Below, in pieces: positions 9,127 through 34,679 of a stretch of DNA of 49,465 nt. Both the position numbers and the translations under genes were made by a program. The stretch comes from an uncultured Dehalococcoidales bacterium. Lineage in GTDB: Bacteria > Chloroflexota > Dehalococcoidia > E44-bin15. The DNA lies in NCBI GenBank assembly GCA_964431905.1, contig CAYSLE010000001.1, positions 1,185-50,649 of the forward strand, read 5' to 3'. The notes beneath the pieces were generated by a model. The model saw only the letters and a list, made by a program, of their open reading frames with translations, made no database searches and had not been told where the DNA came from. The first letter of the stretch is position 1. Each line of letters opens with the position of its first letter.

Positions 9127-9152
9127 GCTTTTTCTCCTTGATTTCATAGTCG

Positions 9153-9623: not shown

Positions 9624-9670
9624 ATACTTGCCTATGTTTTGCTTCCACTCCTCACATTAAACCCTTATAG

Positions 9671-10166: not shown

Positions 10167-10194
10167 TCGCCACTCCTATCACCGATTCCTATAT

Positions 10195-10224
10195 ATCATA
10201 ACATATATATGTCAATATGTCAAT
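10195..10224 (-). promoter_or_regulatory. Candidate TA promoter with operator repeats
   Basis: Minus strand: TTGACA (10223-10218), 17 nt, TATGAT (10200-10195). The spacer carries a perfect 12-bp palindrome ACATATATATGT (10201-10212), and ATTGACAT occurs twice in tandem (10209-10224). Confidence 0.5.
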
Positions 10225-11543
10225 CATCTATACCTCTTGACCTCAAAGCGGTAGAGCACCACCGGCTCGTCGGGCAGGATGCCGGCTTTGGCGCGGCAGA
10301 TCTCGATCTGGTGCTCCACGCTGTCCACCCCCTCCAGGTCGGGGAGAAGAAGCCCCTTCCTCCAGCCGCTCTCAACGATGACCCCGTATCTCTTGGGGTC
10401 GAGCTGGGCCGGGCTCTCCACCGGCTCCGGCTTGGTCAGGACATCGACGCTGTATTCCAGGCCGGAAAGCTCGGCGGGGGTCACCGGCTGGAAGCGGGGG
10501 TCGCGGGTGGCTGAGCTTATAGCGTTGGAGATAACCTCCTCAGCCACATTGGGCTTGGCCGGCTCGAAGGTGCCGATGCAGCCCCGGAGCAGGCCGCCGA
10601 CCTTCAGCGAAACAAACACACCGGCACGCTCCCTCATCTCTGGGGTAAGCTCCGATGGCGGTCTGGGTATCTTCCCCTCGCGGACGTAGCTCTCTATGGT
10701 ATCTTTAGCCAGGCGCACCAGCGGGTGCATCTCCTCACCCGCCTTTATTATTATGCCGGCATAGCCCACTACGGCGTGGTAATCGCCGGTTACGTCGCCG
10801 CTTGTCTGGTACAGAACCAATTCCGCCTTGGCCGCCCCCAGTCCTTTGCACGCCGAGAGGAGGGCGACCGTGGGCGCATAGCCACACATTGTTATACGGA
10901 AATCCTCAACACGCCTTAGGAGTTCGTCTTCATTGAGCTCCAATATTGCCTCTATGGCCAGCTTATCCTTCCTGTTAGCCGACTCCTGAGGCTCGTAATG
11001 CGTCATGTCGCTGCTGGCCATGATCACCACGCCTCTTTTCGAGTCCCTGATCGCCTTGGCTATCCCTTTCCCGATCTCCTTATAGGTGGTGCCAATAGAT
11101 GGGCCCAGGACAATAGGCACGATCTTAATGTCCCTCTTGAAGTATTGCAGGAAGGGTAGCTGCACCTCGATGGAGTGCTCCTCAAGATGGGCGATGTGGT
11201 CCGGTTTCAAATGTGGGGATGACTTCAATATCCTCTTGCCCAGCTCCGAGTCGATCTCCACCTCACCCAGCGGCGTTGACCAAGTCCCCTCTACCATGAT
11301 ACTGAAGGGGTGCCCCAAACCGGTATGGTTAGGCCCCATGATGACGAAGGTATCTTTAAATCTAATCCTTGATATGACAGCGCCGGCCACCGGCCCGGAA
11401 TACATGTATCCAGCATGGGGTGAAACCAGGCCCAGCACCTCTTCCTTGGGTGCCTGTTCATCGATGAGTCTCCGAATCTGTGCCTCCAGCGAAGAAGGCG
11501 AGCCGGGATAGAACTGGCCGGCTACAATAGGATGTCTGATCAT
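10224..11543 (-). CDS. AmmeMemoRadiSam system protein B (Memo-like) fused to protein A (AMMECR1-like)
   Basis: The N-terminal half ([13 protein letters not shown]...[10 protein letters not shown]) is Memo-like. The C-terminal half ([21 protein letters not shown]) is AMMECR1-like. ATG 11543 has a GGGAGG SD and overlaps the stop of the radical SAM gene (ATGA). Confidence 0.85.
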
Positions 11544-12568
11544 AGTGACCTCCCCATCCTCATGTTGAGATCGGCACCGCAATAGCGGCATCTGGAATCC
11601 TCGAGGCCAACGATGTCGGTGTGATAGCCCATCCTTCCGATGACCAGGTTGCCGCAGGAATAGCAGATGGTATTCTCGTTGGCATGACCGGGCACATTGC
11701 CGGTATAGACGAAGCGCAGGCCAACCCTCTTGCCGATGGCATAGGCCCGCTCCAGGGTGGATATGGGGGTCGGGGGCAGGTCCAGTAGCTCATGTTGGGG
11801 GTAGAACCGAGTGACATGCCAGGGGGTCAGCTCCCCCAGCTTATCCCGGATCCAGGTAGCGATGCCCTCAAGCTGCTCCTCATCATCGTTCATGGTGGGG
11901 ATTATGTTGGTCACCACCTCCACATGCATCCCCCACTTCTCTTTAGCCCTCTCCGCCACCTCCAGGATCCCACGCCACCGACTTATTCGGGCGAGTTCCC
12001 GGTGAAAGCGATCGCTGAAGCCTTTTACATCAACGCGGTAGGCCTCGAGATAGGGGCCGATCATGTCCAGAGCCTCTGGGGTGATGTAGCCGTTGGTCAC
12101 ATAGACGGTATAGAGGTTGTTCTCCTTGGCCAGCTTGGCTGAATCGAGGGTATACTCAAACCATATAGTAGGCTCATTATAGGTCCAAGCGATGCCCTGG
12201 CAGTTGGAGCGCTTTGTCATATCAATCGCAGCCTGCGGCGAGACGGTTCGCGACTCTGTAAGGAAGGAGGGGTCACCGCATGAGATCTGCCAGTTCTGGC
12301 AGTGCTTGCAGTGGAAGTTGCAGCCCCAGGTGCCTAAAGAGAAGACCAGGGTCCCGGGAAAGAAGTGGAACAGCGGTTTCTTCTCGATGGGGTCCACAGC
12401 CACCGATGAAGCCGCAGCGTAATTCAGGGCGTAGAGCACACCATCGATGTTCTGGCGCATCTTGCAGACGCCTAGCTTGCCCGGAGCGATGGCGCAACGC
12501 CACTGGCAGATATGGCATCTCACTCTGGAGCCGGGGAGCTTGTCATAGAGCAACACCTCGCGCCTCAT
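11540..12568 (-). CDS. AmmeMemoRadiSam system radical SAM enzyme
   Basis: [11 protein letters not shown] (CxxxCxxC) plus the N-terminal Cys cluster [21 protein letters not shown] place the start at ATG 12568 (GGAGG 5 nt upstream). The listed ORF extends to 12751 and would overlap the divergent thiolase-like gene. Confidence 0.85.
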
Positions 12569-12625
12569 CACCGCCTCCGGCCGTATTTTAGCATATTTGG
12601 GGTACGGTGTAACCCCGACTTCAAC

Positions 12626-12654
12626 TTGACTACCTTCCCCTGAGTTGGTAGACT
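12626..12654 (+). promoter_or_regulatory. Candidate sigma70-type promoter of the CoA operon
   Basis: TTGACT (12626-12631), 17 nt, TAGACT (12649-12654), about 30 nt upstream of the first CDS. Confidence 0.45.
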
Positions 12655-12686
12655 GAACTAGATAGGCAACCGTTAAAAGGGGCTTG

Positions 12687-13877
12687 ATGAAGCGGTTTAG
12701 CCTTAGAGATAAGGCCGCTATAGTTGGAATCGGTGAGACGGAGTATTCCAAAAACTCCGGGATGAGCCACCTGGCGTTACTGCTTCAGGCAGCGACCAGA
12801 GCTATAGAGGATGCCGGCCTCCGTCCCCGGGACATCGATGGCGTGATACCGGCCATGGGTGTTATCCCCTTTGAGGATATTGCCGTCAACCTGGGGACTG
12901 AAGACCTGAGATACACAGTGTCTATCCATATGGGAGGTGCCAGCGCCGTGGCCACGCTGCAGAGTGCCGCCATGGCGGTGGCCTCTGGGATTGCCACCAA
13001 TGTCCTTTGCCTCACCGGCTGGAATGGCTATTCCGGGTTTCGGGCTTCAACCGTCGGCGAGGCTGCGGATGTGTCAGCGCTACCCATGACGGCCATGGCA
13101 TCGCCAATGACCAAGTTACGGGATTTTGAAGTGCCTTATGGGATTTTGGTCCCGGCCCATTGGTATGCCCAACTTGCCATGAGGCACATGCACGAGTTCG
13201 GGACCACCAGCAGGCAACTGGGGGCAGTGGCGGTGGCCTGCCGCAAGCATGCTCAGCTCAATGAGAGAGCGATAATGCGGGGCAGGCCGATGACCATCGA
13301 GGATCATCAGAGTTCAAGGATGATCGTAACCCCCTTCCGCCTTTTCGATTGCTGCCTGGAGAACGATGGCGCTGCTGCCGTGGTGGTAACGTCGGCGGAG
13401 AGAGCTAAGGGCATGAAGCATCGCCCGGTCTACATAATGGGCATTGCCGAAGGCCATCCGGTGCCGGTCGACCACATTGCCAGCAGACTGGATATGTTTC
13501 AAGTAGGCCTTTCCTATGCTGCACCTAGGGCCTTCGCCATGGCCGGCGTCGCCCCCAGGGACATCGCTGTCGCTGAGATCTACGACTGCTTCACCTGGAC
13601 GGTGATCTGCCAGCTTGAGGCACTGGGCTTCTGTAAGCGGGGGGAGGGTGGTCCCTTCGTCGAGGGGGGTCGCATCGAACTCGGTGGAGAGTTGCCGGTA
13701 AACACCCACGGTGGCCTTCTCTCCCAGGCCCATGTATTGGGAATGAACCACGTTGTCGAGGCAGTGAGGCAGGTGCGGGGAGACGCCGGTGACGCCCAGG
13801 TCAGGGATGCTGAGATCGCTCTTGTCACCGGGTGGGGCGACCTGGGCGATGGCTCTGTTGCCATATTGAGGAGATAG
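12687..13877 (+). CDS. Thiolase-fold protein, SCP-x/Ltp2-like, lacking the canonical nucleophilic Cys
   Basis: Thiolase-like pattern (RLFDCCLENDGAAAVVV, NTHGGLLS). The nucleophile motif position reads HMGGASAV, not C-A-S-G. ATG 12687 has a better SD spacing than TTG 12684. Confidence 0.8.
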   Translation: MKRFSLRDKAAIVGIGETEYSKNSGMSHLALLLQAATRAIEDAGLRPRDIDGVIPAMGVIPFEDIAVNLGTEDLRYTVSIHMGGASAVATLQSAAMAVASGIATNVLCLTGWNGYSGFRASTVGEAADVSALPMTAMASPMTKLRDFEVPYGILVPAHWYAQLAMRHMHEFGTTSRQLGAVAVACRKHAQLNERAIMRGRPMTIEDHQSSRMIVTPFRLFDCCLENDGAAAVVVTSAERAKGMKHRPVYIMGIAEGHPVPVDHIASRLDMFQVGLSYAAPRAFAMAGVAPRDIAVAEIYDCFTWTVICQLEALGFCKRGEGGPFVEGGRIELGGELPVNTHGGLLSQAHVLGMNHVVEAVRQVRGDAGDAQVRDAEIALVTGWGDLGDGSVAILRR

Positions 13878-13878
13878 A

Positions 13879-14286
13879 ATGGCTTCTTATGATAAGCCCC
13901 TGCCGCTGATGACACGGGAGACGCGGGAATTCTGGCAGGGATGTAAAAGACACGAGCTTCTCATTCAAAGATGCAAGGACTGTAGAACCTACCGTCATTA
14001 CCCTCGTATCTTGTGCCCTAACTGCGGCTCTTGGAACGTAGAGTGGGCCAAGGTCAGCGGGAAGGGAAAGGTCTATAGCTACATAGTTGCCCACCGGCCG
14101 TTTCACCCCGCCTTCGCCGACGATGTCCCCTATGCCGCGGTCATTGTCGAACTGGAGGAGGGGGTTCGCATGGTGAGCAATGTGGTAGACTGCCGGCCGG
14201 AGGACATATACATCGGGATGCCGGTGGAGGTGGTGTTCGATGACGTCACCAAAGAGGTAACCCTGCCCCGATTTCGAAGGGCATAG
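13879..14286 (+). CDS. DUF35 OB-fold / zinc-ribbon protein
   Basis: CKDCRTYRHYPRILCPNCGS is a zinc ribbon followed by an OB-fold region. It starts 1 nt after the thiolase-like stop. Confidence 0.85.
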   Translation: MASYDKPLPLMTRETREFWQGCKRHELLIQRCKDCRTYRHYPRILCPNCGSWNVEWAKVSGKGKVYSYIVAHRPFHPAFADDVPYAAVIVELEEGVRMVSNVVDCRPEDIYIGMPVEVVFDDVTKEVTLPRFRRA

Positions 14287-14351
14287 CTGGCGTGAAATTA
14301 CGGTAATACCAGCCTTACATAGCAAATGTTCACGGAAAAGGGGGAGAGTGT

Positions 14352-15482
14352 ATGAGCCTTAAAGACAAGTATGCAATTGTGGGGGTGGGATATACCCCTC
14401 AGGGCAAGCTTCCGGATTGGACGGTGAGAGGCCTGTTTCTGGAGGCGTCGAAGAACGCCATCGAGGATGCCGGCCTCACCACCAAGGACATCGATGGCAT
14501 CCTGGTCGAGCTGTGCTGGACGGACCCTACCACCCAGTGCTGGAGCCTACAAGCAGACCTGGGCATCGAGCATACCGGGCTCTGTGCCAACTACGATTCC
14601 ATGGGGGCCAGCGCCAGCGCCAAGGTGCAACTGGCGGCCATGGCCATCGATGCCGGGCTGTGTAAAGCGGTGCTCTGTGCCTTTGTCGAGAAGTCAGCCA
14701 CCGCCTTTGCCGTCCCCTACCGTGTTTCGCTAGGTGCTGGTCTAGCCTATGGATTCTTCGGCGCCATGCCCGGCATTGCTATGGCGGCACAGGCGCACAT
14801 GAGCAAATACGGCACTACCAGCAGGCAACTGGGGGCGATAGCCGTTACCCAGCGACGGCATGCCAGCCTCAATCCCATCGCTCAGATGCGGACCCCGATA
14901 ACCATCGAGGATCACCAGAATTCGAGGATGATTGCGGCGCCGCTTCACCTACTCGATTGCTGCCTCGTCTCCGATGGCGGCCGGGCACTGGTGGTCACCT
15001 CAGCCAAGCGGGCGAAATCGCTGCGGCACCAGCCGGTCTACATCATGGGCATGGGACAGGGCCACGTCATCCTCGACCTCCCGGAGCGGCCGGATATGCT
15101 GGATACCGGTGCCAAACGTTCGGGGGAGGCAGCCTTCAAGATGGCAGGGATCACCTGCAAAGATGTGGATGTTCTCGAGCTTTACGATGCTACCACCTAT
15201 AATGTCATCACCCAGCTGGAGGAGCTCGGCTTTTGCAAGCGGGGCGAGGCCGGGCCTTTCGTAGAGGGGGGAATGCTGTCCATCGATGGCGAGCTGCCCA
15301 CTAATACCTCGGGGGGAATGCTGTCCGAGGCCTACCTCCAGGGCTGGACCGGGCTTATCGAGTTGGTGCGCCAGCTAAGGGGCGATTGCGGCCAGCGCCA
15401 GGTCAAGGATGCTGAGATCGGGCTGGTCACCAACCAGGGAGGCTTCATCGGCTTCCACTCCACCCTTATCCTGAGGAGGTAA
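14352..15482 (+). CDS. Thiolase-fold protein paralog, SCP-x/Ltp2-like, also lacking the nucleophilic Cys
   Basis: Paralog of 12687-13877 and shares an identical 20-mer with it (13206-13225 = 14817-14836). The motif position reads SMGASASA. Also LLDCCLVSDGG and NTSGGMLS. Confidence 0.8.
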   Translation: MSLKDKYAIVGVGYTPQGKLPDWTVRGLFLEASKNAIEDAGLTTKDIDGILVELCWTDPTTQCWSLQADLGIEHTGLCANYDSMGASASAKVQLAAMAIDAGLCKAVLCAFVEKSATAFAVPYRVSLGAGLAYGFFGAMPGIAMAAQAHMSKYGTTSRQLGAIAVTQRRHASLNPIAQMRTPITIEDHQNSRMIAAPLHLLDCCLVSDGGRALVVTSAKRAKSLRHQPVYIMGMGQGHVILDLPERPDMLDTGAKRSGEAAFKMAGITCKDVDVLELYDATTYNVITQLEELGFCKRGEAGPFVEGGMLSIDGELPTNTSGGMLSEAYLQGWTGLIELVRQLRGDCGQRQVKDAEIGLVTNQGGFIGFHSTLILRR

Positions 15483-15913
15483 TGATGGTTGAAATGCAGA
15501 AGCCACTTCCGGGCATAACCGAGGCGACAAAGCCCTACTGGGAGGCAGCTAAGCGGCACGAGCTATTGCTCCTGAAGTGCGTTGATTGCGGCCACTACCG
15601 CCATCCTTTGGCCCCTGGGGAGAGCTTCATGTGTCCCAACTGCAACTCGGTAAAGCAGCCGCAGTGGGTTAAGGCCAGCGGCAGGGGGAAACTTGTAACC
15701 TGGACGGTGATGTACAAAATTTTCCACCCCGCCTTCGCCAGCGAGGCGCCATATGCTGTCGCCATCGCCGAGTTGAAGGAGGGGCCGAGGATGCTGGCTA
15801 ACCTCCGCGGGGTGAAGCCTGAAAATATAAAAGCTAATATGGAGGTGGAGGTCTTTTATGAGGATCTGACCGATGAGGTCACCCTGCCCCAGTTCAGACC
15901 GAGAGGGAAATGA
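15482..15913 (+). CDS. DUF35 OB-fold / zinc-ribbon protein (second copy)
   Basis: CVDCGHYRHP...CPNCNS zinc ribbon. TAATG overlap with the upstream gene. Confidence 0.85.
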   Translation: MMVEMQKPLPGITEATKPYWEAAKRHELLLLKCVDCGHYRHPLAPGESFMCPNCNSVKQPQWVKASGRGKLVTWTVMYKIFHPAFASEAPYAVAIAELKEGPRMLANLRGVKPENIKANMEVEVFYEDLTDEVTLPQFRPRGK

Positions 15914-16524
15914 GGATGATAGTCATTGGCCTCACCGGAGGGATTCTCAGCGGAAAAAGCACTGTATCCGAGATGCTGGCTAAAAAAGGAGCGGTTATCA
16001 TAGATGCCGACAAGATCGGCCATCAAGCGTATAAGCCCGGCACGGAGACTTGGCAAAAGCTCGTTACCGCCTTCGGCAGGGGGATCCTTAAAGAGAACGA
16101 TGAGATAGATCGAAAAAAGCTGGGCGATATCGTCTTTAACAACCCCCAGGCCCTGGCCCAGCTGAACCGGATCGTGCATCCCAAGATGCACTCCATGATG
16201 AAGGAGGAGATCGAGAGACTGAGAGGTAAAGGGGTAGACGTGGTGGTGCTTGAGGCCGCGGTGCTCATCGAGGCTAACTGGACTGACCTTGTTGACGAGG
16301 TCTGGGTCACGGTAGCCCCGGAGGAAGTGGCGGTCAAGCGCCTTCAAAATAGGGGCGGCCTTAACGAGGAGCAGGCCCGGGCTCGCATCCGCTCCCAGCT
16401 CTCCCCTAATGAGCGGGCCGAGCACGCCGATGTAATAATAGATACCGATTGCCAGCTTTCCCAAGTCAGAGCCAAGGTGGAAGAGCTGTGGCAAGGGCTT
16501 CAAAAAAGGAGTGGTTCAGAATGA
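15910..16524 (+). CDS. coaE: Dephospho-CoA kinase
   Basis: [16 protein letters not shown]-loop, [12 protein letters not shown], and 204-aa length. ATGA overlaps at both ends. Confidence 0.9.
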
Positions 16525-17414
16525 GTTTGCAGAGCACCAGGACGCTTTATAGGGAACACATGATCGAGGAATATGTGGTCCGGAGGGAGCCCTATTACCT
16601 GCCCATCGGCGATGAGGTCCAAATCTTCGAGGCTGCCTTTGCCCAGAAGATACCGGTTATCCTTAAGGGGCCGACTGGCTGCGGCAAGACCAGGTTTTTG
16701 GAGTATATGGCCTACAGGTTAGGGCGCCCCCTTACCATCGTGAAGCCACGGAGTAAACAGGGGTTGCCCGAGAAAAGCGGTATCCCCCTGGTCACTGTGG
16801 CCTGCCATGAGGACCTGAGCGCCACCGATCTGGTGGGCAGATACCTCCTTGAAGGGGACTCGACCAAGTGGCTCGACGGGCCGTTAACCAGGGCAGTGAA
16901 GGCCGGGGCTATCTGTTACCTGGATGAGATCGTGGAGGCGAGAAAGGATACCACGGTGCTCATTCACCCCCTCACCGACCACCGCCGCATCCTGCCGGTG
17001 GAGAAGAAGGGACAGGTCATCGAGGCTGACAGCAATTTCCTCCTGGTGATCTCCTATAATCCCGGATACCAGAGCGCCCTGAAGGACCTCAAGCACAGCA
17101 CCCGCCAGAGATTCATCGCCATCGACTTCGCCTATCCACCTCGAGATAAGGAAAAGGAGATCATCGAGCACGAGAGCGGGGTCTCAGCAGAGGTCGCCTG
17201 GGATCTGGCCAAGCTTGGCGAGAAGGTGAGGAACCTCAAGGAGCACGGGCTTGAGGAGGGGGCTTCTACCCGTCTCTTGATCTACGCCGGCAGGCTCATC
17301 GGGGAGGGCATCCCACCGCGGAGGGCCTGTCAGGTGGCTATAGTATCGGTGCTAAGCGACGATGCCGAGGTGCAGCGAAGCATTGAGGAGGTCGTGTCCA
17401 CCATCTTTGAGTAG
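16521..17414 (+). CDS. CbbQ/NirQ/NorQ-family MoxR-type AAA+ ATPase
   Basis: Walker [24 protein letters not shown], Walker [20 protein letters not shown]...[14 protein letters not shown] 16521 follows an AAAGGAG SD and overlaps the coaE stop. Confidence 0.85.
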
Positions 17415-17443
17415 GCACCCCTTGGGAGTTGTCGGTGAACAGA

Positions 17444-18823
17444 ATGAAGCTCTTTATGGAGCCTGATTCGGTGGCCATTATCGGGGTCTCCAGAGTCACC
17501 GGCCCCGTTACCCTGAATATCCTGGAGAACCTGGTGAACGCCGGTTTTCTGGGGAGGGTCTACCCGGTGAATCCCAATGCCGACGAGATCCTGGGGATGA
17601 AATGCTACCGCAGTGTGCTCGACATCCCCGATGGTATCGACCTCGCCGTGATAACCACGCCGCGCTCAGTGGTGCCACGCATCGTCGGCGAGTGCACCCA
17701 AAAGGGAATAAGGGCTCTCATCGTCGTCGGTCAAGGGTTCGCCGACGGGGATGAGGAGGGTAAAAAGCTACAAGAAGAGATAGTGAGGATCGCCAGGGAA
17801 GGCGGGGCCAGGATACTGGGGCCCAATACCTTCGGCATCGCTAACGCCTTCAATAATCTCAGCTCAGCCTATATGAAACTGGAGATGAATAAGGTCCCCA
17901 TAGGGATTATCGCTCAGAGCGGGTTCTTTTTTGTTGGCCTGCCCAAATTCACCGTAGTGGGAAAGGGGATCGACCTGGGCAATGCCTGTGATATCGATTT
18001 CGCCGATGGCCTGGAATATTTTGAGGATGACCCCCAGATTAAATTGATCCTCCTCCATATAGAAGGGACGAAGGATGGCAGACGGTTTATTGAGGTCGCA
18101 GGGCGAGTGGCGAAGAAAAAGCCCATAATCGCCCTCAAGACGGGCAGAGGAGAAGACGGGGCCAGGGCAGCCCGCTCTCACAGCGGCTCGCTGGCAGGCA
18201 GGGACGAGGTCTACGATGCCGCTTTTCGGCAACACGGTATCATCAGGGTTGGCGATGTCGATGAGTTCCATGACCTGGCCAAGGCCTTCCTACACCTGCC
18301 CCCGATCAAGGGAAGGAGCATTGGGGTAATCACCATCACCGGCGCTGGCGGCATCATCGCCACTGACGCCTGCGAAAGGTATAACCTGCACTTGGCCAAG
18401 CTTTCACCCCAGACCTTGAGCACAATCGGCCCTTTGGCACCCTCGTGGCAGACCCTGGAGAATCCCGCCGATATCTGGCCAGCGATGATGATTGAGAGGC
18501 ACCCTTTTGATGAGGTCTTCACCACCATCCTGGAGGCATTCCTGGCCGATGGTAATATCCATGCTGTCATCCTCATCTTCGCTGCTTTCCCTATCCAGTT
18601 CCCGACATTCCCGATGAGGGACCTCAGCCAGATTGCCAACAGATTCGAAAAGCCCGTCGTCTGCTGGCTATACGGGCCCGATCCAGAGAAGATGGCCAGT
18701 CTGATAGAGAACGAGGCGAGAATAGTGGTTTTCCCCACCTTAGATCGGGCGATGAGGACTCTCTCCAGGCTCAACGATTATTTCGAATACCTAGCGAGCG
18801 CCAACAATGAAGGTGACAGATAG
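17444..18823 (+). CDS. ADP-forming acyl-CoA synthetase alpha-subunit-like CoA-binding protein
   Basis: N-terminus MKLFMEPDSVAIIGVS (CoA-binding Rossmann fold) and phosphohistidine-loop-like ARSHSGSLAG. The size matches an AcdA-type alpha subunit. The start is uncertain (TTG 17429, GTG 17435 or ATG 17444). Confidence 0.8.
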   Translation: MKLFMEPDSVAIIGVSRVTGPVTLNILENLVNAGFLGRVYPVNPNADEILGMKCYRSVLDIPDGIDLAVITTPRSVVPRIVGECTQKGIRALIVVGQGFADGDEEGKKLQEEIVRIAREGGARILGPNTFGIANAFNNLSSAYMKLEMNKVPIGIIAQSGFFFVGLPKFTVVGKGIDLGNACDIDFADGLEYFEDDPQIKLILLHIEGTKDGRRFIEVAGRVAKKKPIIALKTGRGEDGARAARSHSGSLAGRDEVYDAAFRQHGIIRVGDVDEFHDLAKAFLHLPPIKGRSIGVITITGAGGIIATDACERYNLHLAKLSPQTLSTIGPLAPSWQTLENPADIWPAMMIERHPFDEVFTTILEAFLADGNIHAVILIFAAFPIQFPTFPMRDLSQIANRFEKPVVCWLYGPDPEKMASLIENEARIVVFPTLDRAMRTLSRLNDYFEYLASANNEGDR

Positions 18824-19448
18824 TTCTCGACAGCGGAAACACCGAGCGGCCAAGGATAGCAATGCGTTCAAAGAGAAGATCCGCCGAATCCTCTCCCAGA
18901 GGGTGAAGCATACCATCGTCTTCACCGATGCCCCTTTAGCTCCGGCTGCGGTGCTGGTGCCCCTTTATAAGAGGGAAGGGGAATACTACCTCCTGTTCAC
19001 CAAGAGAACGGAGAGACTGGTGCATCATAAAGGCCAGATATCCTTCCCCGGAGGGGCACAACACAAGGAGGATCGAGACCTTGCGACCACCGCCCTCCGC
19101 GAGACCTTTGAGGAGATCGGGGTCAAGCCTGAGGACGTGGAGATATTGGGGGAGCTGGACCGGATGGGCACGGTCACCAGCTACTTCCTCATCACACCCT
19201 TCGTTGGCATTATCCCATATCCGTACAAGTTCACCGTGAGCCAAGATGAGATAGAGGAGCTGGTGGAGGTCCCCATATCGGCGCTTCTGTCCAAAGCGAA
19301 CTATCGGGAAGAGAACCACGAGTATGAGGGCAAAACCTATGTGGCGAGCTTCTTCGATTATAAAGGCAAGGTGATTTGGGGAGCAACCGCCAAGATTCTA
19401 AAGCAGTTCCTGGATCTTGTCTTCGAGGAAAATGGCACGAGGGCATGA
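18807..19448 (+). CDS. Nudix hydrolase, CoA pyrophosphatase type
   Basis: NuCoA-type motif LLFTKRTERLVHHKGQISFPGG followed by the Nudix box GGAQHKEDRDLATTALRETFEEIGV. Overlaps the upstream gene by 17 nt. Confidence 0.85.
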   Translation: MKVTDSSRQRKHRAAKDSNAFKEKIRRILSQRVKHTIVFTDAPLAPAAVLVPLYKREGEYYLLFTKRTERLVHHKGQISFPGGAQHKEDRDLATTALRETFEEIGVKPEDVEILGELDRMGTVTSYFLITPFVGIIPYPYKFTVSQDEIEELVEVPISALLSKANYREENHEYEGKTYVASFFDYKGKVIWGATAKILKQFLDLVFEENGTRA

Positions 19449-19449
19449 C

Positions 19450-22400
19450 ATGGCAGATGAGCACCTTTCACCACTGGAGCGGGAACTGGGCCACTTTCCC
19501 CCTGCACTCCTAGCCGAATTCCACAAAGCGGCTCCGGCGGCCAGGGCCCGACTCTCCCCAAAGGAGTTTGAGGATTGGGCCAAGGAGGGCATTGCCATAG
19601 CCCAGTCTTCCTACCGCGCCTGGGAGCCGGCTTTGGAGTATTTCAGGGCAACCCCCAAGACCCTGGAGAAACTCTCCTTTCCCACTCTGATCTCATGGGT
19701 CCAAGTGGGCAAAAGGCTTTCTCAGGAGTCCTGCACCCTCTCCTCAGCCTATTTTCGAGCAAGCCCTGGCGCCATCAACTTCCTCGCACCGAACCAGTTT
19801 GAGGACTGGGCCAGCATAGGGAGAAGCCTGTACAAAGAGACCTGGCGCTCCAGCTCCCTCTCAGCGAAGTTTTTCGAGTGCAGCCCAGGGTTCCTGTCCT
19901 ACCTAGACCTTGAGGCGGTCTCGCGGTTTGTCCTTTTTCTGGGGACGCTCGCCGAGAAATCCTATGACCTGGCTAACGAGTGCTTGCTTCTGGCCGAGGA
20001 GGTCTTTGCCGGGTTGGAACGGGATGAGCGGATGCCCTTTATCAACCTGGCGTCGGTTCTGGCACAAACCAATTGTGCCGATGCCAGAACCTACTTCGCC
20101 CTCGGGCCCAGGATCCTTTCCCGGATCGAGCGGGGGGAGAGGAACCGCTTCCTGTCTCTGGCCATGGCCATTGCCAGCTCTAAGGGCATCCACGCCCCCT
20201 CCTTTCTGTTCGATGGGTCTCAGGCTCTAAGCAAGCTGGACGCCGCGCTCCACAGCCCCCTGCTCGATGCCTTCGAGGAGCTATCGCCCCTTTCCGCCGC
20301 CTCTGCCATCGAGTTCCTGAGGGTCTCTCCCACCCTGCTGCAGCGGATCGATATCTCAAGGCTAGGGCACTGGCTCAGCGAGGGGAAGAGCATTTTGAAG
20401 AAACGGAGAGAGGCTGGGGAAGCCTACTTCCGCTTGGAGTCGATGAGGTGTGAGGAGGTTTTGCAGCGCCTGTCCTCCGGGGTTGAGCTAGACCAAGTTA
20501 AAGAGGTGCTGCGAATGTACTGTAGAGCGCTCACCGGGCGCAATGCTCAAATACTTTCCACCGAGAATTTGACGGGTAGAGGCATCGGATGGACCTCCCT
20601 GGAAATGCCCTCCACCGAGGGAACCGGAGTGTTTCTACCGTCCATCGTCGACAAATATGACACCAAGAGAGATAACTTCGGCTGGTATAAGGTTATGGTC
20701 ACCCACCAGGCAGGGCATCTTGAATTTGGCAGCTTCGATTTCTCCTTCGAGAAGGAGGCCACCCTCTTCCCCAACCTGCGCTTTGAGCTTGGCGACCGAA
20801 GCGGGAATGGTATTACCGACCTGGAGAGGTTCTTCGATCTCTTCGCCGACCGTCGCCTTGCCGCCGACATCTTTACTGCGGTGGAGGACACGAGGGTAGA
20901 CTACCTGCTCAAGGGAGAATATGCCGGGATTAGAAAAAGATATGAGCAGGTGCAGCGAGAGGCGCTGGCGGATAGACCCCCGGTGAATTCCCTGCCATTG
21001 AGGCAGGCATTTGTCGAGTTCCTGACCCAAGTGAGCCTGGTGGACCTTGACCATGTCGAATTTCCCGCTGAAGTGGCGCGTGAGCTTCGCCTGGTTACTC
21101 AAATCGCCAGCAAGGTAAAGTCGCCCCAGGCCACCGTGGAGGACTCCGCTGAAGCTACCATCAGGCTCTATGCCCTCATAGCTAAGATCATCAATATGAT
21201 GTATGAGCAGGGGTGGCAGACCATCGATCTGAACATGGATTTTGAAGACCTCGATGAGCTCATCGTATCCCTCGATGGCATTCCCAAGGGGGATAGGGTA
21301 GAGGGCACTGAACTGCCCTATGAAAGCCCGCCACAAGTGGATTTCCGCGGCGATTTCAAACCGGAGCTTGTTCAATTGCTAATGAAATTAAAGCAGGACT
21401 ACTCTCAGCGCGATACTCCTCCGGGCACACCTCTGTCCCCAGAGGCCCTGAAGGAACTGGCGGAGAAGAGCGTTGAGATCGAGCTTGCCTGTGTATCACC
21501 CGGCGATCTATCCTCCTCCATCGGCCTATTCATCAGCAACCTGATGGACCAACTGAACCAGCCGATACCTTCTCTAACCATCCCAGAAAGGAAAGAAGCA
21601 AAAAAAGCCGCCTCGGAGGAGAAGGCCCTGGAAGAGGAAAAGAATTCCTTCCTCTATGATGAATGGGACTTTCGCGCCAACGATTATAAGCCCAGGTGGT
21701 GTCGCCTCCGAGAGAAGACCACCGCTGAAGGGACAGCGGAGTTCTTCGAAGACACCCTGAAAGATCATTCCCATCTGGCTGCTCAGATCAAGAGACAATT
21801 CGAACTGGTGACGCTGGAATTCTTCAAGAAGATAAAGAGGCTTCACGATGGAGAGGATTTCGATCTAGATGCCGTGATTGAGGCCATGGTAGAGAAAAAG
21901 GCCGGGGTTGCTCCCAGCGAGAAGATCTACTGGAGACGGAACAAAGTGGAGAGGGATGTCTCCGTGGCCTTTCTCCTCGATATGAGCGCATCGACCTCCG
22001 AAGCCATCGAGGAGGTAAAAACGAAACCGGATAATTGGGATTTCGATACCAACCTGAGAGGCTATTTGCAGTATCTCAGGATGCAGCGCGAAGACATGGG
22101 AGGACAAAAAACAAGGCGCATCATCGATGTGGAAAAAGAGAGCCTGGTCCTCCTGATCGGGGCGCTGGAAACCATCGGCGACCAATATGGAATCTATGGC
22201 TTCTCCGGGTATGGCAGGGACAATGTGGAGTTCTTTGTCATCAAGGACATCGATGAGGATTTTTCGGAGAGGGTAAAACAACGGATCGACAAGCTTGCTC
22301 CACTGCACGCCACCAGAATGGGGCCAGCGATAAGACATGCCACCTCAAAGCTACTGAGGCAGGATTCCAGGACCAAGATCCTCTTCCTGATCAGCGATGG

Positions 22401-22641
22401 TCGCCCCCAGGATCATGGTTATGGCCGGGATTCTATGGAGAAAGACTACGCCATCCACGATACCAAGATGGCGCTCCTGGAGGCCAAGCGAAAGAATATA
22501 GTGCCCTTCTGTCTAACTGTGGATAAGGCAGGGCAGGACTACCTAAAGAAGATGTGCCATGATATCGGCTATGAAGTGGTGTGGGACATCGAATCCCTGC
22601 CCAAACGCCTGCCCACCCTCTATAGAAGGCTGACCACCTAG
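19450..22641 (+). CDS. Large VWA-domain protein, CbbO/NorD-like
   Basis: The C-terminal VWA domain has the MIDAS motif DMSASTS, then FLISDGRPQD and FCLTVD. The N-terminal ~330 aa consist of ~37-aa helical repeats. ATG 19450 lies 1 nt after the Nudix stop. Confidence 0.8.
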   Translation: MADEHLSPLERELGHFPPALLAEFHKAAPAARARLSPKEFEDWAKEGIAIAQSSYRAWEPALEYFRATPKTLEKLSFPTLISWVQVGKRLSQESCTLSSAYFRASPGAINFLAPNQFEDWASIGRSLYKETWRSSSLSAKFFECSPGFLSYLDLEAVSRFVLFLGTLAEKSYDLANECLLLAEEVFAGLERDERMPFINLASVLAQTNCADARTYFALGPRILSRIERGERNRFLSLAMAIASSKGIHAPSFLFDGSQALSKLDAALHSPLLDAFEELSPLSAASAIEFLRVSPTLLQRIDISRLGHWLSEGKSILKKRREAGEAYFRLESMRCEEVLQRLSSGVELDQVKEVLRMYCRALTGRNAQILSTENLTGRGIGWTSLEMPSTEGTGVFLPSIVDKYDTKRDNFGWYKVMVTHQAGHLEFGSFDFSFEKEATLFPNLRFELGDRSGNGITDLERFFDLFADRRLAADIFTAVEDTRVDYLLKGEYAGIRKRYEQVQREALADRPPVNSLPLRQAFVEFLTQVSLVDLDHVEFPAEVARELRLVTQIASKVKSPQATVEDSAEATIRLYALIAKIINMMYEQGWQTIDLNMDFEDLDELIVSLDGIPKGDRVEGTELPYESPPQVDFRGDFKPELVQLLMKLKQDYSQRDTPPGTPLSPEALKELAEKSVEIELACVSPGDLSSSIGLFISNLMDQLNQPIPSLTIPERKEAKKAASEEKALEEEKNSFLYDEWDFRANDYKPRWCRLREKTTAEGTAEFFEDTLKDHSHLAAQIKRQFELVTLEFFKKIKRLHDGEDFDLDAVIEAMVEKKAGVAPSEKIYWRRNKVERDVSVAFLLDMSASTSEAIEEVKTKPDNWDFDTNLRGYLQYLRMQREDMGGQKTRRIIDVEKESLVLLIGALETIGDQYGIYGFSGYGRDNVEFFVIKDIDEDFSERVKQRIDKLAPLHATRMGPAIRHATSKLLRQDSRTKILFLISDGRPQDHGYGRDSMEKDYAIHDTKMALLEAKRKNIVPFCLTVDKAGQDYLKKMCHDIGYEVVWDIESLPKRLPTLYRRLTT

Positions 22642-22662
22642 CCTGTAACCCTAAACAAGAAA

Positions 22663-22683
22663 GGGGCGGGGCTTTCCCGTCCC
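22663..22683. terminator. Bidirectional intrinsic terminator between convergent VWA and hsp20 genes
   Basis: ggggcggg (22663-22670) pairs with cccgtccc (22676-22683) with one G-T pair, loop gcttt. T-rich tails follow on both strands (ttcttcgcctt on +, tttcttgttt on -). Confidence 0.55.
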
Positions 22684-22710
22684 TTCTTCGCCTTAAACGG
22701 GGGCGTCAGT

Positions 22711-23181
22711 TCACTGCTTCTTGCCCTCAATGGCCCCCTTGGTTTTGACCTTCATGGTCTTGGGCTTAGCCTCCTCAGACCTGGGGATGGTTAGGGTCAA
22801 GATACCGTTCTCAAAGGTGGCCTCAGCCTTGTCCGTTTTAAGGTCAGCGGGGAGTTTTACCGAGCGACTGAAGGCACCATAGCGATGCTCCTGATAGAGG
22901 TAGTCCTCCCGCTTCACCTCCTCTTTTACTTTGGTCTCGCCTTTTATGGATAGTGTGTCTCCAGTGATGGTAACCTCTACCTCCTCAGGCTTGACGCCGG
23001 GCAAGGCGGCTTTAACCACCACCTCTTTCGCCGTCTGATACATGTCGATAAGCGGCTGCTCCTCTTCACCGAAGAACTCCTTGATGCGCGATGGCCGGAC
23101 AAAGCTCTCCTCGAAGAGCCGGTCCATAGCCTGACGCAGGCTCATCAACTCCCTGAAGGGCTCCCAACGAACAATGCTCAT
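22711..23181 (-). CDS. Hsp20/alpha-crystallin small heat-shock protein
   Basis: MSIVRWEPFRELMSL N-terminus and an alpha-crystallin domain ending GILTLTIP. ATG 23181 has an AGGAGGTGA SD; the listed GTG 23190 does not. Confidence 0.9.
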   Translation of the reverse strand: MSIVRWEPFRELMSLRQAMDRLFEESFVRPSRIKEFFGEEEQPLIDMYQTAKEVVVKAALPGVKPEEVEVTITGDTLSIKGETKVKEEVKREDYLYQEHRYGAFSRSVKLPADLKTDKAEATFENGILTLTIPRSEEAKPKTMKVKTKGAIEGKKQ

Positions 23182-23217
23182 CTTCCTCACCTCCTTTCAT
23201 GAATTAATCTCGCTATT

Positions 23218-23246
23218 AGTCTAGCGTGTTAGTATGATTTTGTCAA
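23218..23246 (-). promoter_or_regulatory. Candidate hsp20 promoter
   Basis: Minus strand: TTGACA (23246-23241), 17 nt, TAGACT (23223-23218). Confidence 0.5.
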
Positions 23247-23296
23247 GACTCCTACAATCACGTTGCAATATATCAATAATAAATCATTTAAAAGTA

Positions 23297-23325
23297 TTGA
23301 CATAATTTTATAATTATCTTATAAT
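23297..23325 (+). promoter_or_regulatory. Consensus sigma70 promoter of dnaJ-hspR-clpC
   Basis: TTGACA (23297-23302), exactly 17 nt, TATAAT (23320-23325), in a very AT-rich spacer. The AAGGAGAGG SD and ATG 23348 follow. Confidence 0.6.
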
Positions 23326-23347
23326 AAAAATCAATAAGGAGAGGAAA

Positions 23348-24346
23348 ATGGCGGCTAAGGACTTCTATCAAATTCTCGGTGTGAGTCGGAAGGCCAGCGA
23401 TAAGGAGATAAAGCAGGCCTATCGCCGGCTGGCACGTAAGTATCACCCCGATGTTAACCCGGGCAATCCCTCCGCTGAGGCCAAGTTCAAGGAGATAAAC
23501 GCTGCTTATGAAGTCCTCTCCGATCCGGAGAAGCGCAAGAAATACGACCAGTTTGGCGATAAGTGGCAGTATGCCGACCAATTCGCTGGATGGCAGCAGG
23601 GCTCCTTTGGCGACCATGCCCGGCAAGGGGCCACTGTCTTCGACTTTGGTGACGCCTTCGGCGAAGGCGACCTGGGCGGGATTTTCGATGGCCTGTTTCG
23701 AGGTTTCGGCACCAGGACCGCATCCCGCCGGCCCAGGCGCGGCCGTGACATCGAGCAGCCCATTGAGGTCACTCTAGAGGAAGCCTATCACGGCAGCACC
23801 CGCACTATTGGCACTCAGGCTGAGAGCGTCTGCGACGTCTGCAATGGAAGAGGGGCACTGGGGAATGCCCCCTGCTACACCTGTGGCGGCACGGGTAGGG
23901 TGCTCCGGCAGCAGCGTCTCGAGGTCAAGATCCCACCCGGGGTTAAGGATGGCTCGCGGATACGTGTCGCGGGCAAGGGTGGGCCCGGCTCCGCCGGCGG
24001 CTCAAGCGGCGATCTTTATCTTGTAGTCACGGTCCAGCCCCATTCTATATTCCAGCGGAAAGATAGCGATCTCCAGGTGGAAGTTGCCGTTCCCATTACC
24101 GATGCCATACTGGGCGGCGAGGTGGAGGTGCCGACGCTAAAGGGCAAAGTTGCCCTCAAGATACCCCCCGAGACCCAGAATGGGCGGGTGTTTCGCCTCG
24201 CCGGACAGGGCATGCCGGTGATGGGCAATACCAAGAAGGGCGACCTCCTGGCCAAGGTTAATATCGTCCTGCCCACCAAGCTAACGGAAAGGGAAAGGGA
24301 GCTTTTCCGGGAGCTGAGAAAGCTTCGCGGAGGTGACAAGAGATGA
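23348..24346 (+). CDS. dnaJ: DnaJ-class co-chaperone with a two-repeat zinc finger
   Basis: J domain with HPD ([10 protein letters not shown]) and a G/F-rich linker. Only two CxxCxGxG repeats ([16 protein letters not shown]), followed by C-terminal substrate-binding domains. Confidence 0.85.
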
Positions 24347-24657
24347 TGTTCGATGATACTGAACCCTGCTACGTGATCAGCGTCGTCGCCAGGATGCTGG
24401 GCGTCAGTGCCCAGTCACTGCGCTATTATGAAAAGGCGGGGCTCATTGAGCCATCGCGCTCCCAGGGGCGGGTGCGCCTTTACTCCCAAAGGGACGTGGA
24501 GAGGCTGCGCCAGGCAAAGACGCTGATCGATGACCTGGGGGTAAACCTTGCTGGGGTGGAGGTCATACTCCGCCTTAGGGAGCATATCGCTGAGATGGAG
24601 AGACAGATGGAGGAGTTGGAGGTAGAGATCAAGCGCCTCAGGGAGGCCAAGCTCTAG
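24343..24657 (+). CDS. hspR: MerR-family heat-shock repressor HspR
   Basis: [46 protein letters not shown] is a MerR HTH. ATGA overlap with dnaJ. The position after dnaJ is the classic hspR context. Confidence 0.8.
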
Positions 24658-24675
24658 CTCGAAAAGGAGTTTACC

Positions 24676-27087
24676 ATGATGAGACAGGATAGATTTACGG
24701 AACAGGCACAGGAGGCACTGGCCCTCTCCCAGGAGCTGGTGCGTCGTTACCGCCACAACCAGTGGGATGTGGAGCACATACTTCTCGCCCTGCTCCAGCA
24801 GGAGAATGGTTTGACCGGCGATATACTGAGAAAGCTGGGGGTGAATGCCGACGAGGTGCGGAGCCGCGTCGAAGCAGCGCTGGAGAAAACGCCCAAGATC
24901 GCCTATGAAGGGGCCACGCTCTACGCCACGCCGCGCACGGTGCGCCTTATGGAGAATGCCGCCTCCGAGGCCGAGCGGCTGAAGGATGAGTTCATCGGCA
25001 CTGAACACCTGCTCATCGCTATAGCCGGCGACCGGCAGGGGGACGCCGCCGCCATCCTTAGTGACTTCGGCATCGATCAGGAGAAGATATATCGCGCCCT
25101 TCAGGACATCCGCGGCGGACACCGCGTTACCGACCCCAGAGCGGAGAGCAAATACGGTGCTTTGGAGAAGTATAGCCGCGACCTGACCATGCTCGCCCGC
25201 GAGGGAAAGCTAGACCCGGTTATCGGGCGAGACGACGAAATAAAAAGGGTGATGCAAATCCTCACCAGACGCACCAAGAATAACCCGGTTATCATCGGCG
25301 AGGCCGGGGTGGGCAAGACTGCCATCGTGGAGGGCCTGGCCCAGAAGATCGTGGCCGATGATGTGCCCGATTCCCTCAAAGGCAAAAGGGTGATCGCCCT
25401 GGATATGGGGGCTCTGGTAGCCGGCTCCAAGTTCCGTGGCGAGTTCGAGGAGCGGCTCAAGGCGGTGATGGACGAAATCCGCCAGGCTCACGGCGAGATC
25501 ATCCTATTTATCGATGAGATGCACACCGTGGTCGGCGCCGGCGCGGCGGAGGGGGCCATCGATGCTAGCAACATGCTCAAGCCAGCCCTGGCCCGGGGCG
25601 AGCTCCGATGCGTGGGGGCGACAACGCTGGATGAGTATCGGGAGCATATCGAAAAGGATGCTGCCCTGGAGCGGCGGCTACAACCGGTTTACATCGATGA
25701 GCCCAGCGTCGAGGCTACCATCGAGATGCTCCGTGGGCTGCGCCCACGGTATGAGGCTCACCACAAGATACAGATCACCGATTCCGCCCTTGAGGCTGCT
25801 GCCCGGCTAAGCCAGAGGTATATCTCGGACCGCTTCCTCCCGGACAAGGCGGTGGACCTCATCGATGAGGCGGCATCGAAGATCAGGATCGACACCGAGA
25901 GCGCGCCCTCTGAGGTGAAGGAGCTGGAGAAAAAGGTAAAGCAACTAATCAATGAGGAGGAAGCAGCATCGCAGCGTCGAGAATACGAGCATGCCGCCGA
26001 GCTTAAGGTGGAACGACTGCGCCTGGAAGAGAGCTATAATCAAGCCAAGGCCAACTGGCTCCAAGAGAAGAGGATCGATGGGGTTGTGGACGAGGAGAAC
26101 ATCGCTGAGCTGATATCCAAATGGACCGGCATCCCCGTGTCCCGCATGCTGGAAGGGGAGACGGAGAAGCTCTTACATATGGAGGAGCGCATTCATGATA
26201 GGATCATCGGCCAGGATGCTGCGGTTGAGGTTGTCTCCCAGGCCATTAGACGGGCCAGGGCCGGGCTCAAGGATCCGAAGAGACCCATAGGCAGCTTCAT
26301 GTTCCTGGGGCCAACCGGCGTGGGCAAGACCGAGCTGGCTCGGGCCCTGGCTGAGTTCCTCTTCGATGATGAGGAGGCCATGGTCCGGCTCGATATGTCC
26401 GAGTACATGGAAAAGCACACCGTGTCTCGGCTTATCGGTGCCCCACCGGGCTACATCGGCTACGAAGAAGGGGGACAGCTCACCGAGGCAGTGCGCCGCC
26501 GACCCTATAAGGTGATCCTCTTCGATGAGGTGGAAAAGGCGCACCCCGATGTGTTCAACATCCTGCTTCAGATACTGGAGGACGGCCGGCTGACCGATGG
26601 TCATGGCAGAACCGTCGACTTTAAGAACACCGTGGTGATCATGACCTCCAACCTGGGCACTGAGGAGTTCCAGCGCCAAGCCATCGGTTTCTCCAAGGAG
26701 ACCAAGAGCGAACAGAAACGGCTAAAGGGCGCCATAGATAGCGCCCTGAAAAAGACCTTCCGCCCTGAGTTCCTCAACCGTCTTGATGAGATCGTTATCT
26801 TCCAGCCCCTCACCGAGGAGCAGATCAAACAGATCGTCGATCTCATGATGAAGGACGTTAGGAAGCGACTTGCCGATAGAAAGATAACTGTGGAACTTTC
26901 CCAGGCAGCCAAGGCTAAACTGGCCGAAGAGGGCTTCGACCCGGTATTTGGGGCCCGCCCATTGCGCCGCACCATACAGCGCCGGGTGGAGAACCCCTTG
27001 TCCATGAAGATACTTCAAGGGGAGTTTAAGGAGGGAGACCGCGTAGTCGTCGATGTCGGCCCCGATGGCTTCACCTTCACCGCTTGA
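24676..27087 (+). CDS. clpC: Clp/Hsp100 AAA+ chaperone, ClpC type
   Basis: Clp_N repeats and two Walker A boxes ([16 protein letters not shown]). The middle domain is short (~65 aa) with a UVR-like [14 protein letters not shown] sits where B. subtilis ClpC has its VGF ClpP-docking loop; ClpB lacks that loop. Confidence 0.75.
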
Positions 27088-32822: not shown

Positions 32823-32825
32823 ATG

Positions 32826-34676: not shown

Positions 34677-34679
34677 GCT

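Follow-up and report, generated by a model that had tools for sequence, protein, structure and literature searches.

The window analyzed here, a 49,465-nucleotide stretch of DNA from an uncultured Dehalococcoidales bacterium (contig CAYSLE010000001.1 of assembly GCA_964431905.1), carries nine co-directional coding sequences on the + strand that span positions 12687-22641. Embedded in this run is a four-gene cassette, conserved class-wide in Dehalococcoidia, that consists of coaE (dephospho-CoA kinase), a CbbQ/NorQ-type AAA+ ATPase (Q), a phosphohydrolase occupying what we call the slot, and a giant VWA adaptor protein (D). A first-pass annotation, made from the sequence alone, had treated all nine genes as a single CoA-centered module. 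Checking the open reading frames (ORFs) of the window reproduced its coordinates and junctions exactly, with gaps in gene order of +1, +65, -1, -4, -4, +29, -17 and +1 nt. Pfam and NCBIfam scans of the nine products likewise upheld all of its domain calls, with the refinements that the two thiolase-fold proteins are Cys-less and that the AAA+ and VWA proteins form a pair of the CbbQ/NorQ-NorD type. The same scans agree with it that no dehydrogenase, hydratase or HMG-CoA synthase is found among the nine products. The features of the locus are as follows.

12626..12654, + strand: sigma-70-type promoter-like site TTGACT-17-TAGACT with a TG-extended -10, in a 95-nt divergent intergenic region
12687..13877, + strand: thiolase-fold protein 1, SCP-x/Ltp2-like, with Gly for the nucleophilic Cys (Thiolase_C_1); a lineage-specific passenger
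13879..14286, + strand: DUF35 partner 1, zinc ribbon plus OB fold (zf-ChsH2 and OB_ChsH2_C)
14352..15482, + strand: thiolase-fold protein 2, a Cys-less paralog 46% identical to protein 1 (Thiolase_C_1)
15482..15913, + strand: DUF35 partner 2 (zf-ChsH2 and OB_ChsH2_C)
15910..16524, + strand: coaE, dephospho-CoA kinase (TIGR00152), first gene of the conserved cassette, with an ATGA overlap with the next gene
16521..17414, + strand: Q, CbbQ/NorQ-type MoxR AAA+ ATPase (AAA_5 and CbbQ_C)
17444..18823, + strand: ACD-alpha-like CoA-binding protein (CoA_binding_2 and Succ_CoA_lig), with an alternative TTG start at 17429
18807..19448, + strand: NudL-like Nudix hydrolase of the CoA-pyrophosphatase family (PRK10707), in the phosphohydrolase slot
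19450..22641, + strand: D, 1,063-residue NorD/CbbO-type VWA adaptor, whole gene
22657..22688, no strand assigned: terminator-like, GC-rich 13-bp hairpin where the VWA and Hsp20 genes converge, with no clear T-run

Judged from their spacing, the nine genes are likely to be co-transcribed as one operon, and a purine-rich Shine-Dalgarno-like motif precedes most of the nine starts. The promoter-like site placed at 12626-12654 is present and, although it matches the consensus at only 9 of 12 positions (with the TG extension), it is well preserved: in an intergenic alignment of five relatives (65-85% identity to the window in the VWA protein), the -35 (CTTGACT) and -10 (TAGACTG) elements are invariant, whereas the remaining intergenic DNA is ~61% identical. 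A second conserved block in this alignment corresponds to the -10 of the opposite-strand radical-SAM gene. An Rfam scan upstream of the operon found no riboswitch or leader. At the distal end, a bidirectional terminator had been proposed at 22663-22683. We did find a hairpin there, at 22657-22688, and the 69-nt stretch that contains it has a folding energy of -27.4 kcal/mol (z = -2.0), but it has no proper T-run and a terminator scan did not call it.

A conserved cassette with lineage-specific passengers

A profile scan for the VWA protein, using one genome per species, identified a relative in at least 561 species genomes. The best 80 of these are nearly all Dehalococcoidia/Chloroflexota, the exceptions being one metagenome-assembled genome labeled Acidobacteriota and one 'Bacterium HR24'. 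Carriers of D include SAR202 and the isolate Tepidiforma flava, whose strain YIM 72310 shows the order coaE-Q-MPE-D (MPE, metallophosphoesterase). We then tabulated gene neighborhoods by tblastn at 78 Dehalococcoidia loci with at least 3 kb of upstream sequence (individual loci are given as L numbers). At 70 of the 78, coaE directly followed by the cbbQ-like gene lies upstream of D on the same strand, so that the neighborhood named in the first-pass annotation (coaE, CbbQ-like, Nudix and VWA) is strongly conserved. Far from being unique to this genome, the adjacency of the four-gene core is kept across the class.

The position between Q and D is the variable part of the cassette. Among the 70 loci it holds a NudL-like Nudix gene in 26, a Nudix gene together with an ACD-alpha gene in 4 more, a YfcE-family metallophosphoesterase (MPE) in 20, and another or unassigned gene in 2 (one of them a short-chain dehydrogenase/reductase, in L025); it is empty in 17, and at one locus over 2.5 kb separates D from the upstream coaE-Q pair. 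The slot MPE matches Metallophos_2 and scores 62 bits against the YfcE-family model TIGR00040, for which the cut-off is 56. Slot content tracks the VWA phylogeny. The order of the cassette persists at 25-30% identity in the N-terminal region of D and with different flanks (L086 and the SAR202 locus L087), and the coaE-Q adjacency survives where all other neighbors have changed. Co-transcription of coaE with a CoA-hydrolyzing Nudix had been singled out as unusual; the two genes do share a cassette here, but the pairing recurs in ~30 loci.

The thiolase-fold/DUF35 pairs and the ACD-alpha gene, by comparison, are sub-lineage-specific additions that share the promoter. They accompany the cassette only in the sub-lineage of the window (L003, L083, L084 and L085; VWA identity of at least 65%), and at least 60 Dehalococcoidia loci have no thiolase/DUF35 or ACD-alpha gene near the cassette. 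Even among close relatives the set varies. Thiolase-fold protein 1 is found only in L003 and L083-L085, and protein 2 only in L084, its pair being absent from L003, L083 and L085. The ACD-alpha gene, a lineage-specific insertion between Q and the Nudix gene, is present in L003, L083 and L085 and absent from L084, L024 and all other loci; its listing as part of the conserved neighborhood is not borne out. Nor does the full set of nine stand out as a conserved module, since it is confined to a sub-lineage in which unrelated flanks are syntenic too (AmmeMemoRadiSam upstream; Hsp20 and DnaJ-HspR-ClpB downstream). Conservation of the nine-gene unit does not exceed that of ordinary local synteny.

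The products of the cassette have clear family assignments. CoaE scores 171.3 bits against TIGR00152 (cut-off 65.55), and its translation contains the P-loop GxxGxGKS/T. Q matches AAA_5 at 3.5e-29 and CbbQ_C at 1.2e-31 in Pfam, and its best matches in the PDB are CbbQ (5c3c, E 2.5e-102) and NorQ (9qh4, E 9e-93). Walker A (GPTGCGKT) and Walker B (YLDE) motifs can be read in its translation, and by these features Q would be placed in the CbbQ/NorQ/GvpN (CGN) subfamily of MoxR AAA+ ATPases. For the Nudix protein of the window, PRK10707 is the top and only strong family match, at 129.3 bits against a cut-off of 134; the other cassette Nudix proteins likewise match no other model strongly, and distant ones score 87-101 bits. 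CoA pyrophosphatases of the Nudix type carry the NuCoA motif LLTxR[SA]x3Rx3Gx3FPGG upstream of the Nudix box. A variant of it, [KR]R[ST]x3[VE]x3Gx3FPGG, in which V or E replaces the second Arg, is kept in 28 of 29 cassette Nudix proteins.

Among the passengers, both thiolase-fold proteins have Gly in place of the nucleophilic Cys (AACxSG) that is kept by the true thiolases aligned with them, and on this evidence they do not count, catalytically, as thiolases. The top PDB match of protein 1 is the Ltp2 aldolase (6ok1, E 1.8e-85); that of protein 2 is an uncharacterized, Cys-less 'Thiolase' (4u4e), with 6ok1 second. Tyr294 and Tyr344 are the catalytic residues of an Ltp2-type retro-aldolase. Both window proteins keep the equivalent of Tyr294; at the position of Tyr344, protein 2 has Tyr and protein 1 has His. 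It appears more likely that, with their DUF35 partners, they act as retro-aldolases or as C-C lyases of a similar kind. In L084 (3782-5254), thiolase-fold protein 2 is fused to its DUF35 partner in a single chain of 490 residues, which supports a physical complex between the two. The same pairing of an SCP-x-type thiolase fold with a zinc-ribbon/OB DUF35 protein is seen in Ltp2-ChsH2 (6ok1), archaeal thiolase-HMGCS-DUF35 and BbsAB. Unlike in Ltp2-ChsH2, the DUF35 proteins of the window stand alone rather than forming the C-terminus of a MaoC hydratase, and no steroid-degradation genes are present at the window. The ACD-alpha-like protein keeps the phospho-His motif SHSGSLAG but scores 387 bits against TIGR02717, below the cut-off of 567, and no beta/ATP-grasp partner for it was found among the window ORFs scanned. 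By these measures it does not qualify as an ADP-forming acetyl-CoA synthetase.

Several neighbors of the operon were also recorded. Divergent from it, on the - strand at 10224-12592, lies an AmmeMemoRadiSam system that comprises a radical SAM enzyme and a Memo-AMMECR1 fusion (10224-11591); relatives conserve the -10 region of this system as well. A heat-shock cluster follows downstream at 22711-27087, consisting of Hsp20 (- strand) and then dnaJ - merR/hspR-like - clpB, with a perfect TTGACA-17-TATAAT promoter at 23297-23325 ahead of these three genes; the cluster is syntenic in L084 and L085. In L001, L086 and ~28 other loci, a CinA gene (MoCF_biosynth and CinA) on the - strand is convergent to the VWA gene, whether the clade has a Nudix, an MPE or an empty slot. 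CinA, too, is a nucleotide pyrophosphatase/NMN deamidase. The window contains a selenocysteine island at 32725-39604, with tRNA-Sec (32725-32822, +), SelB (32826-34676, -), a SelD-like AIRS protein (34680-35642, -) and SelA (38042-39604, +); in other Dehalococcoidia clades, SelA is directly upstream of coaE. Further along are an NrpR-type regulator (HTH_12 and NRD1_2) adjoining a LUD-domain/4Fe-4S protein (40883-43188, - strand), two overlapping family III CoA-transferase genes (45169-46398 and 46322-47641), and a second ACD-alpha paralog (47659-49113, - strand) that is 30% identical to the operon copy. The NrpR family is best known as the nitrogen repressor of methanogenic archaea.

The giant VWA adaptor and its wider family

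D divides into four parts.

19450..20469, + strand: residues 1-340, alpha-solenoid of two-helix repeats of ~37-40 residues, consensus W..G...S.R.WE.A.EYFRASP
20482..21249, + strand: residues 345-600, alpha/beta domain without a fold match (AlphaFold2 model)
21250..21639, + strand: residues 601-730, low-confidence linker, probably disordered (pLDDT 29-60)
21640..22641, + strand: residues 731-1063, NorD-like beta-hairpin finger, VWA domain and LPxLYRRLT tail

The last of these parts connects D to a known adaptor. In profile comparison, D aligns with NorD (9qhd) at E 1.5e-47 over profile positions 745-1072. The alignment covers the finger (Y..EWD..x..Y.P), the VWA domain and the tail (LPxxYRxL). 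The full-length AlphaFold2 model of D has a predicted local distance difference test (pLDDT) score of 79.8 and contains a beta-hairpin at residues 732-757. Foldseek gave E 1.5e-15 for D against the VWA domain of NorD, and full-length D matched only VWA/NorD structures. The MIDAS, or metal-ion-dependent adhesion site, is intact, with D844-x-S846-x-S848, T955 and D983 invariant in 73 sequences.

The N-terminal part of D is a different matter. Its solenoid is modeled with a pLDDT of ~90 and displays periodic invariant tryptophans (W43, W83 and W120). The central domain, modeled alone, has a pLDDT of 88 and a predicted template modeling score of 0.87, and yet a Foldseek search of the PDB returned no match for it (best E 2.4). 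Pfam has no match to the solenoid or to the central domain, and profile comparison against NorD found no significant alignment of this region to the NorD N-terminal domain. By these comparisons, the first 730 residues of D are unrelated to NorD. The central domain contains the motifs T-H-Q-x-x-H-x-E, E479-D480-x-R-x-D and E564-D565. Of their residues, H419, Q420, E425, E479, D480, D484, E564 and D565 are invariant, and H423 is kept in at least 90% of the 73 sequences. We considered a zincin-like reading of the H-Q-x-x-H motif and dropped it, given that the domain has no Pfam or PDB fold match and that the second His is absent from the Thermoleophilia form. The motif is kept in a Nitrospirota-like clade and becomes H-G-x-x-R in Thermoleophilia.

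The closest named relative of D, from 'Dehalococcoidia bacterium DG_18', is 72% identical, and a hydrothermal-vent metagenome contains an 85%-identical homolog. In the source databases, the adaptor goes by 'NorD' or 'hypothetical'. Searching with the D N-terminal region recovered a family of 1,250 clusters at 50% identity (E of 1e-3 or below), whose named members belong to Dehalococcoidia/SAR202, Nitrospiria and Candidatus Manganitrophaceae. A metagenome scan seeded with the divergent Nitrospirota-like clade returned at least 587 stretches. In this clade, cbbQ either adjoins the VWA gene or is separated from it by a few kb; in L092-L111, L134, L153 and L170, intervening genes place it 1-5.5 kb upstream of the VWA gene, and coaE is absent. 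By-eye reading suggests that the conserved downstream neighbors resemble Mdh, NuoF, FolE, QueD and RarA. Beta-oxidation genes adjoin D in L112 and Q-D in L132. In L139, Q-D stands beside a CobW GTPase, identified by scanning, and MtaA-like methyltransferase and corrinoid-protein genes are apparent by eye.

A third branch is found in Thermoleophilia (Actinomycetota), in which the adaptor is split into an N protein of ~361 residues and a VWA protein of ~550-600 residues, both after CbbQ (L088 at 7608-11318, L089, L090, L091 and L145). The split adaptor comprises more than 120 clusters that are 72-94% identical, and one copy resides on a 46.6-kb plasmid of Miltoncostaea oceani. The surrounding block encodes a thiamine diphosphate (ThDP) enzyme, Cys-less thiolase-fold/DUF35 pairs and an AMP-forming CoA ligase, with two acetoacetate-decarboxylase-family genes in L088, L090 and L091 and a TRAP transporter in L090 and L091. 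The Thermoleophilia system is equidistant from all Dehalococcoidia, so the thiolase-fold/DUF35 neighborhood common to both is not due to recent transfer.

A predicted remodeler and its possible link to CoA

We think it probable that the operon is a composite whose conserved heart is an ATP-driven remodeler cassette acting on a putative client. The closest structural guide is the cryo-EM work on NorQD (9qh4-9qhg), in which the finger and the C-terminal tail of NorD make the two contacts with the AAA+ ring, in which the NorD linker is essential, and in which ATP-driven rotation stretches the linker and remodels the client (PMC13036017). By homology to NorQD/CbbQO, Q would form a hexamer, and D would insert its beta-finger into the Q pore and touch Q via its conserved C-terminal tail. 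The MIDAS site, solenoid and central domain of D could then hold the client protein, and ATP hydrolysis would stretch the linker and remodel the client, such that a cofactor or metal is loaded or an inhibitor is released. One proposal is that client specificity is determined by the N-terminal domain of the VWA partner, which is variable (PMC9976466); the distinct 730-residue N-terminus of D accordingly argues for a distinct client, which would be neither Rubisco nor NO reductase.

What this client might be is a harder question. Our preferred reading, which we hold tentatively, is that in Dehalococcoidia the ligand or client is CoA-related. We favor it because the CoA nucleotide is the substrate for two of the four cassette enzymes and because either of two unrelated (pyro)phosphodiesterase folds can occupy the slot, a displacement pattern that usually marks a required activity. 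In such a scheme, Q-D would open the client and free a CoA-type nucleotide that is damaged or at a dead end; the freed adenine-nucleotide cofactor (such as CoA, dephospho-CoA or CoA disulfide) would be broken down by the slot hydrolase; and CoaE would complete the replacement CoA. Rubisco activation offers a parallel, in that a tightly bound phosphorylated ligand is released and then degraded by a separate inhibitor phosphatase. By this analogy, Q-D could even represent a third functional class of MoxR-VWA machines, a 'CoA-enzyme activase' that pries out or loads a CoA-type nucleotide, although we regard so specific a role as rather doubtful.

A number of observations weigh against a CoA-related client. 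Any physical or functional tie between Q-D and either CoaE or the hydrolase is a prediction from gene adjacency, and the single transcript is inferred from spacing. Wider synteny in the class is itself partly conserved, with EtfB-EtfA upstream and CinA downstream, which makes adjacency alone weak evidence of function. The Nudix protein of the window scores just under the curated CoA-pyrophosphatase cut-off, and the slot gene is missing from 17 Dehalococcoidia loci. Finally, outside Dehalococcoidia, the Q-D family is found with neither coaE nor the slot hydrolase (in Nitrospirota-like lineages, Thermoleophilia and others), so that a fusion of operons specific to the class could account for the coaE link.

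Most of these facts are equally at home in an explanation that could well be correct, even if we stop short of calling it probable: the client of Q-D, such as a metalloenzyme or a respiratory complex encoded elsewhere, has nothing to do with CoA, and coaE and the Nudix or MPE gene are housekeeping genes hitch-hiking in an ancestral operon. The empty slots, the quite different neighbors of Q-D in other lineages and the generally conserved EtfBA-CinA region all fit this view, and in many bacteria the operon that contains coaE is functionally mixed. It accounts less easily for the coaE-Q adjacency, which outlasts a change of every other neighbor, or for the share of CoA-nucleotide enzymes among the cassette genes. 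The replacement of the Nudix by a non-homologous phosphodiesterase also speaks against simple hitch-hiking, as it suggests selection for the slot activity within the operon.

The first-pass annotation had instead proposed that all nine genes form one dedicated module for CoA-thioester turnover, CoA-pool editing or activation of a CoA-dependent enzyme. In this form, with Q-D activating the thiolase-fold/DUF35 or ACD-alpha enzymes, we consider the proposal improbable. A CoA link is possible and the four-gene core is conserved, but the nine-gene set is mostly local synteny: the passengers are missing near the cassette across most of the class, the ACD-alpha gene and second thiolase pair are variable among close relatives, and unrelated flanks are conserved equally well in the sub-lineage. 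The argument that seven of the nine products are CoA-related survives as a set of domain calls. It loses force because CoA enzymes are abundant in this genome, the window alone holding the second ACD-alpha paralog and two CoA-transferases. The 'thiolases', moreover, have no catalytic Cys. On the other side are the one conserved promoter and the tight or overlapping junctions, the beta-oxidation genes next to D or Q-D in L112 and L132, and the independent echo in Thermoleophilia, where split D and Q lie beside Cys-less thiolase-fold/DUF35 pairs, a CoA ligase and a ThDP enzyme. We treat this last neighborhood as a lead that may favor the earlier idea.

One further line of support for the nine-gene module was tried and rejected. 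Acyl-CoA genes appeared enriched at 0-4 kb from the cassette relative to 6-10 kb (0.103 versus 0.030 per kb), but 72 of the 107 proximal matches belong to an inherited EtfB/EtfA/Fe-S block, and the enrichment disappears once EtfAB is removed. The query panel had also been built post hoc from the proximal genes.

It is less likely still that CoaE itself is the client, with Q-D folding, assembling or de-inhibiting the dephospho-CoA kinase. MoxR/VWA pairs usually lie beside the genes of their clients (nor, cbb), and here the invariant neighbor is coaE, joined by an ATGA overlap. There is also a precedent: the CoaE of Mycobacterium tuberculosis is reported to have a chaperone-like helper and to be regulated by CTP (PMC2765170, PMC3123319), and mycobacterial CoaE reportedly requires the UPF0157 domain to fold. 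The CoaE of the window, however, is an ordinary 204-residue enzyme with no distinctive feature, the Q-D family lacks an adjacent coaE in other phyla, and a 1,060-residue adaptor for a 23-kDa kinase would be unprecedented. As for an anti-phage or conflict system built from a MoxR-like ATPase, a VWA protein and a Nudix effector, MoxR/VWA modules do occur in some NTP-dependent conflict systems, but PADLOC models gave only a marginal IetA P-loop match (E 1.5e-4) and the cassette is chromosomal, near-universal in the class, vertically inherited and tied to an essential biosynthetic gene, whereas defense islands are patchy, which leaves this idea with almost no credibility.

If Q-D were such a CoA-enzyme activase, the system would be near-universal in Dehalococcoidia, including marine SAR202. 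Whatever the client, a large Q-D family, with an adaptor that has a distinct 730-residue N-terminal region, spans Dehalococcoidia, Nitrospirota-like lineages and Thermoleophilia, and a conserved gene set of uncharacterized role is now flagged in abundant ocean and subsurface bacteria. The operon link of Dehalococcoidia, coaE plus an interchangeable (pyro)phosphodiesterase, provides a testable hypothesis on cofactor loading or repair. With a carrier in culture (Tepidiforma flava) and a taxonomically coherent family, the question of the client can be tested directly. For annotation, the genes now carry the labels 'NorD' or 'hypothetical', and the adjacent 'thiolases' should not be called thiolases.

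Comparison with known AAA+/VWA machines

To our knowledge, few clients of CbbQ/NorQ-type AAA+/VWA remodelers are known, Rubisco and NO reductase among them. In searches of 7.7 million PubMed Central papers and of bioRxiv, we found no description of the cassette and no paper that mentions dephospho-CoA kinase with CbbQ or Dehalococcoidia with CbbQ. The hydrolase of the cassette also has characterized counterparts. Like the CoA pyrophosphatases NudL, NUDT7 and Pcd1, the window Nudix has the FPGG-containing upstream motif, in a variant form, and a NudL-type Nudix box; unlike them, the cassette Nudix, whose activity is predicted, can be swapped within the operon for a YfcE-type metallophosphoesterase.

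Of the AAA+/VWA machines, the CbbQ-CbbO Rubisco activase (5c3c, 6l1q) provides the best PDB match of Q, and its partner is likewise a large VWA protein. No Rubisco (cbbL/S, cbbM) or carboxysome gene families were present in the window ORFs scanned or the locus tables examined, and the carrier lineages examined here are not tied to Rubisco. NorQ-NorD shares with Q-D the similarity in Q already given, the finger, the VWA domain with its MIDAS and the C-terminal tail, and in both adaptors a long disordered linker separates the N-terminal part from the VWA domain (that of D as seen in the model). D is ~420 residues longer than NorD, however, with no similarity over the N-terminal 730 residues, and the operon partners of Q-D are coaE and a phosphohydrolase; norC and norB were not found among the window ORFs scanned or in the locus gene tables examined. 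Taken together, these comparisons indicate that the cassette, which has neither a client operon nor a NorD-type N-terminal domain, is a relative of the machines that activate Rubisco and NO reductase, and that by sequence and predicted structure Q-D carries all the features of a NorQD/CbbQO-type pair.

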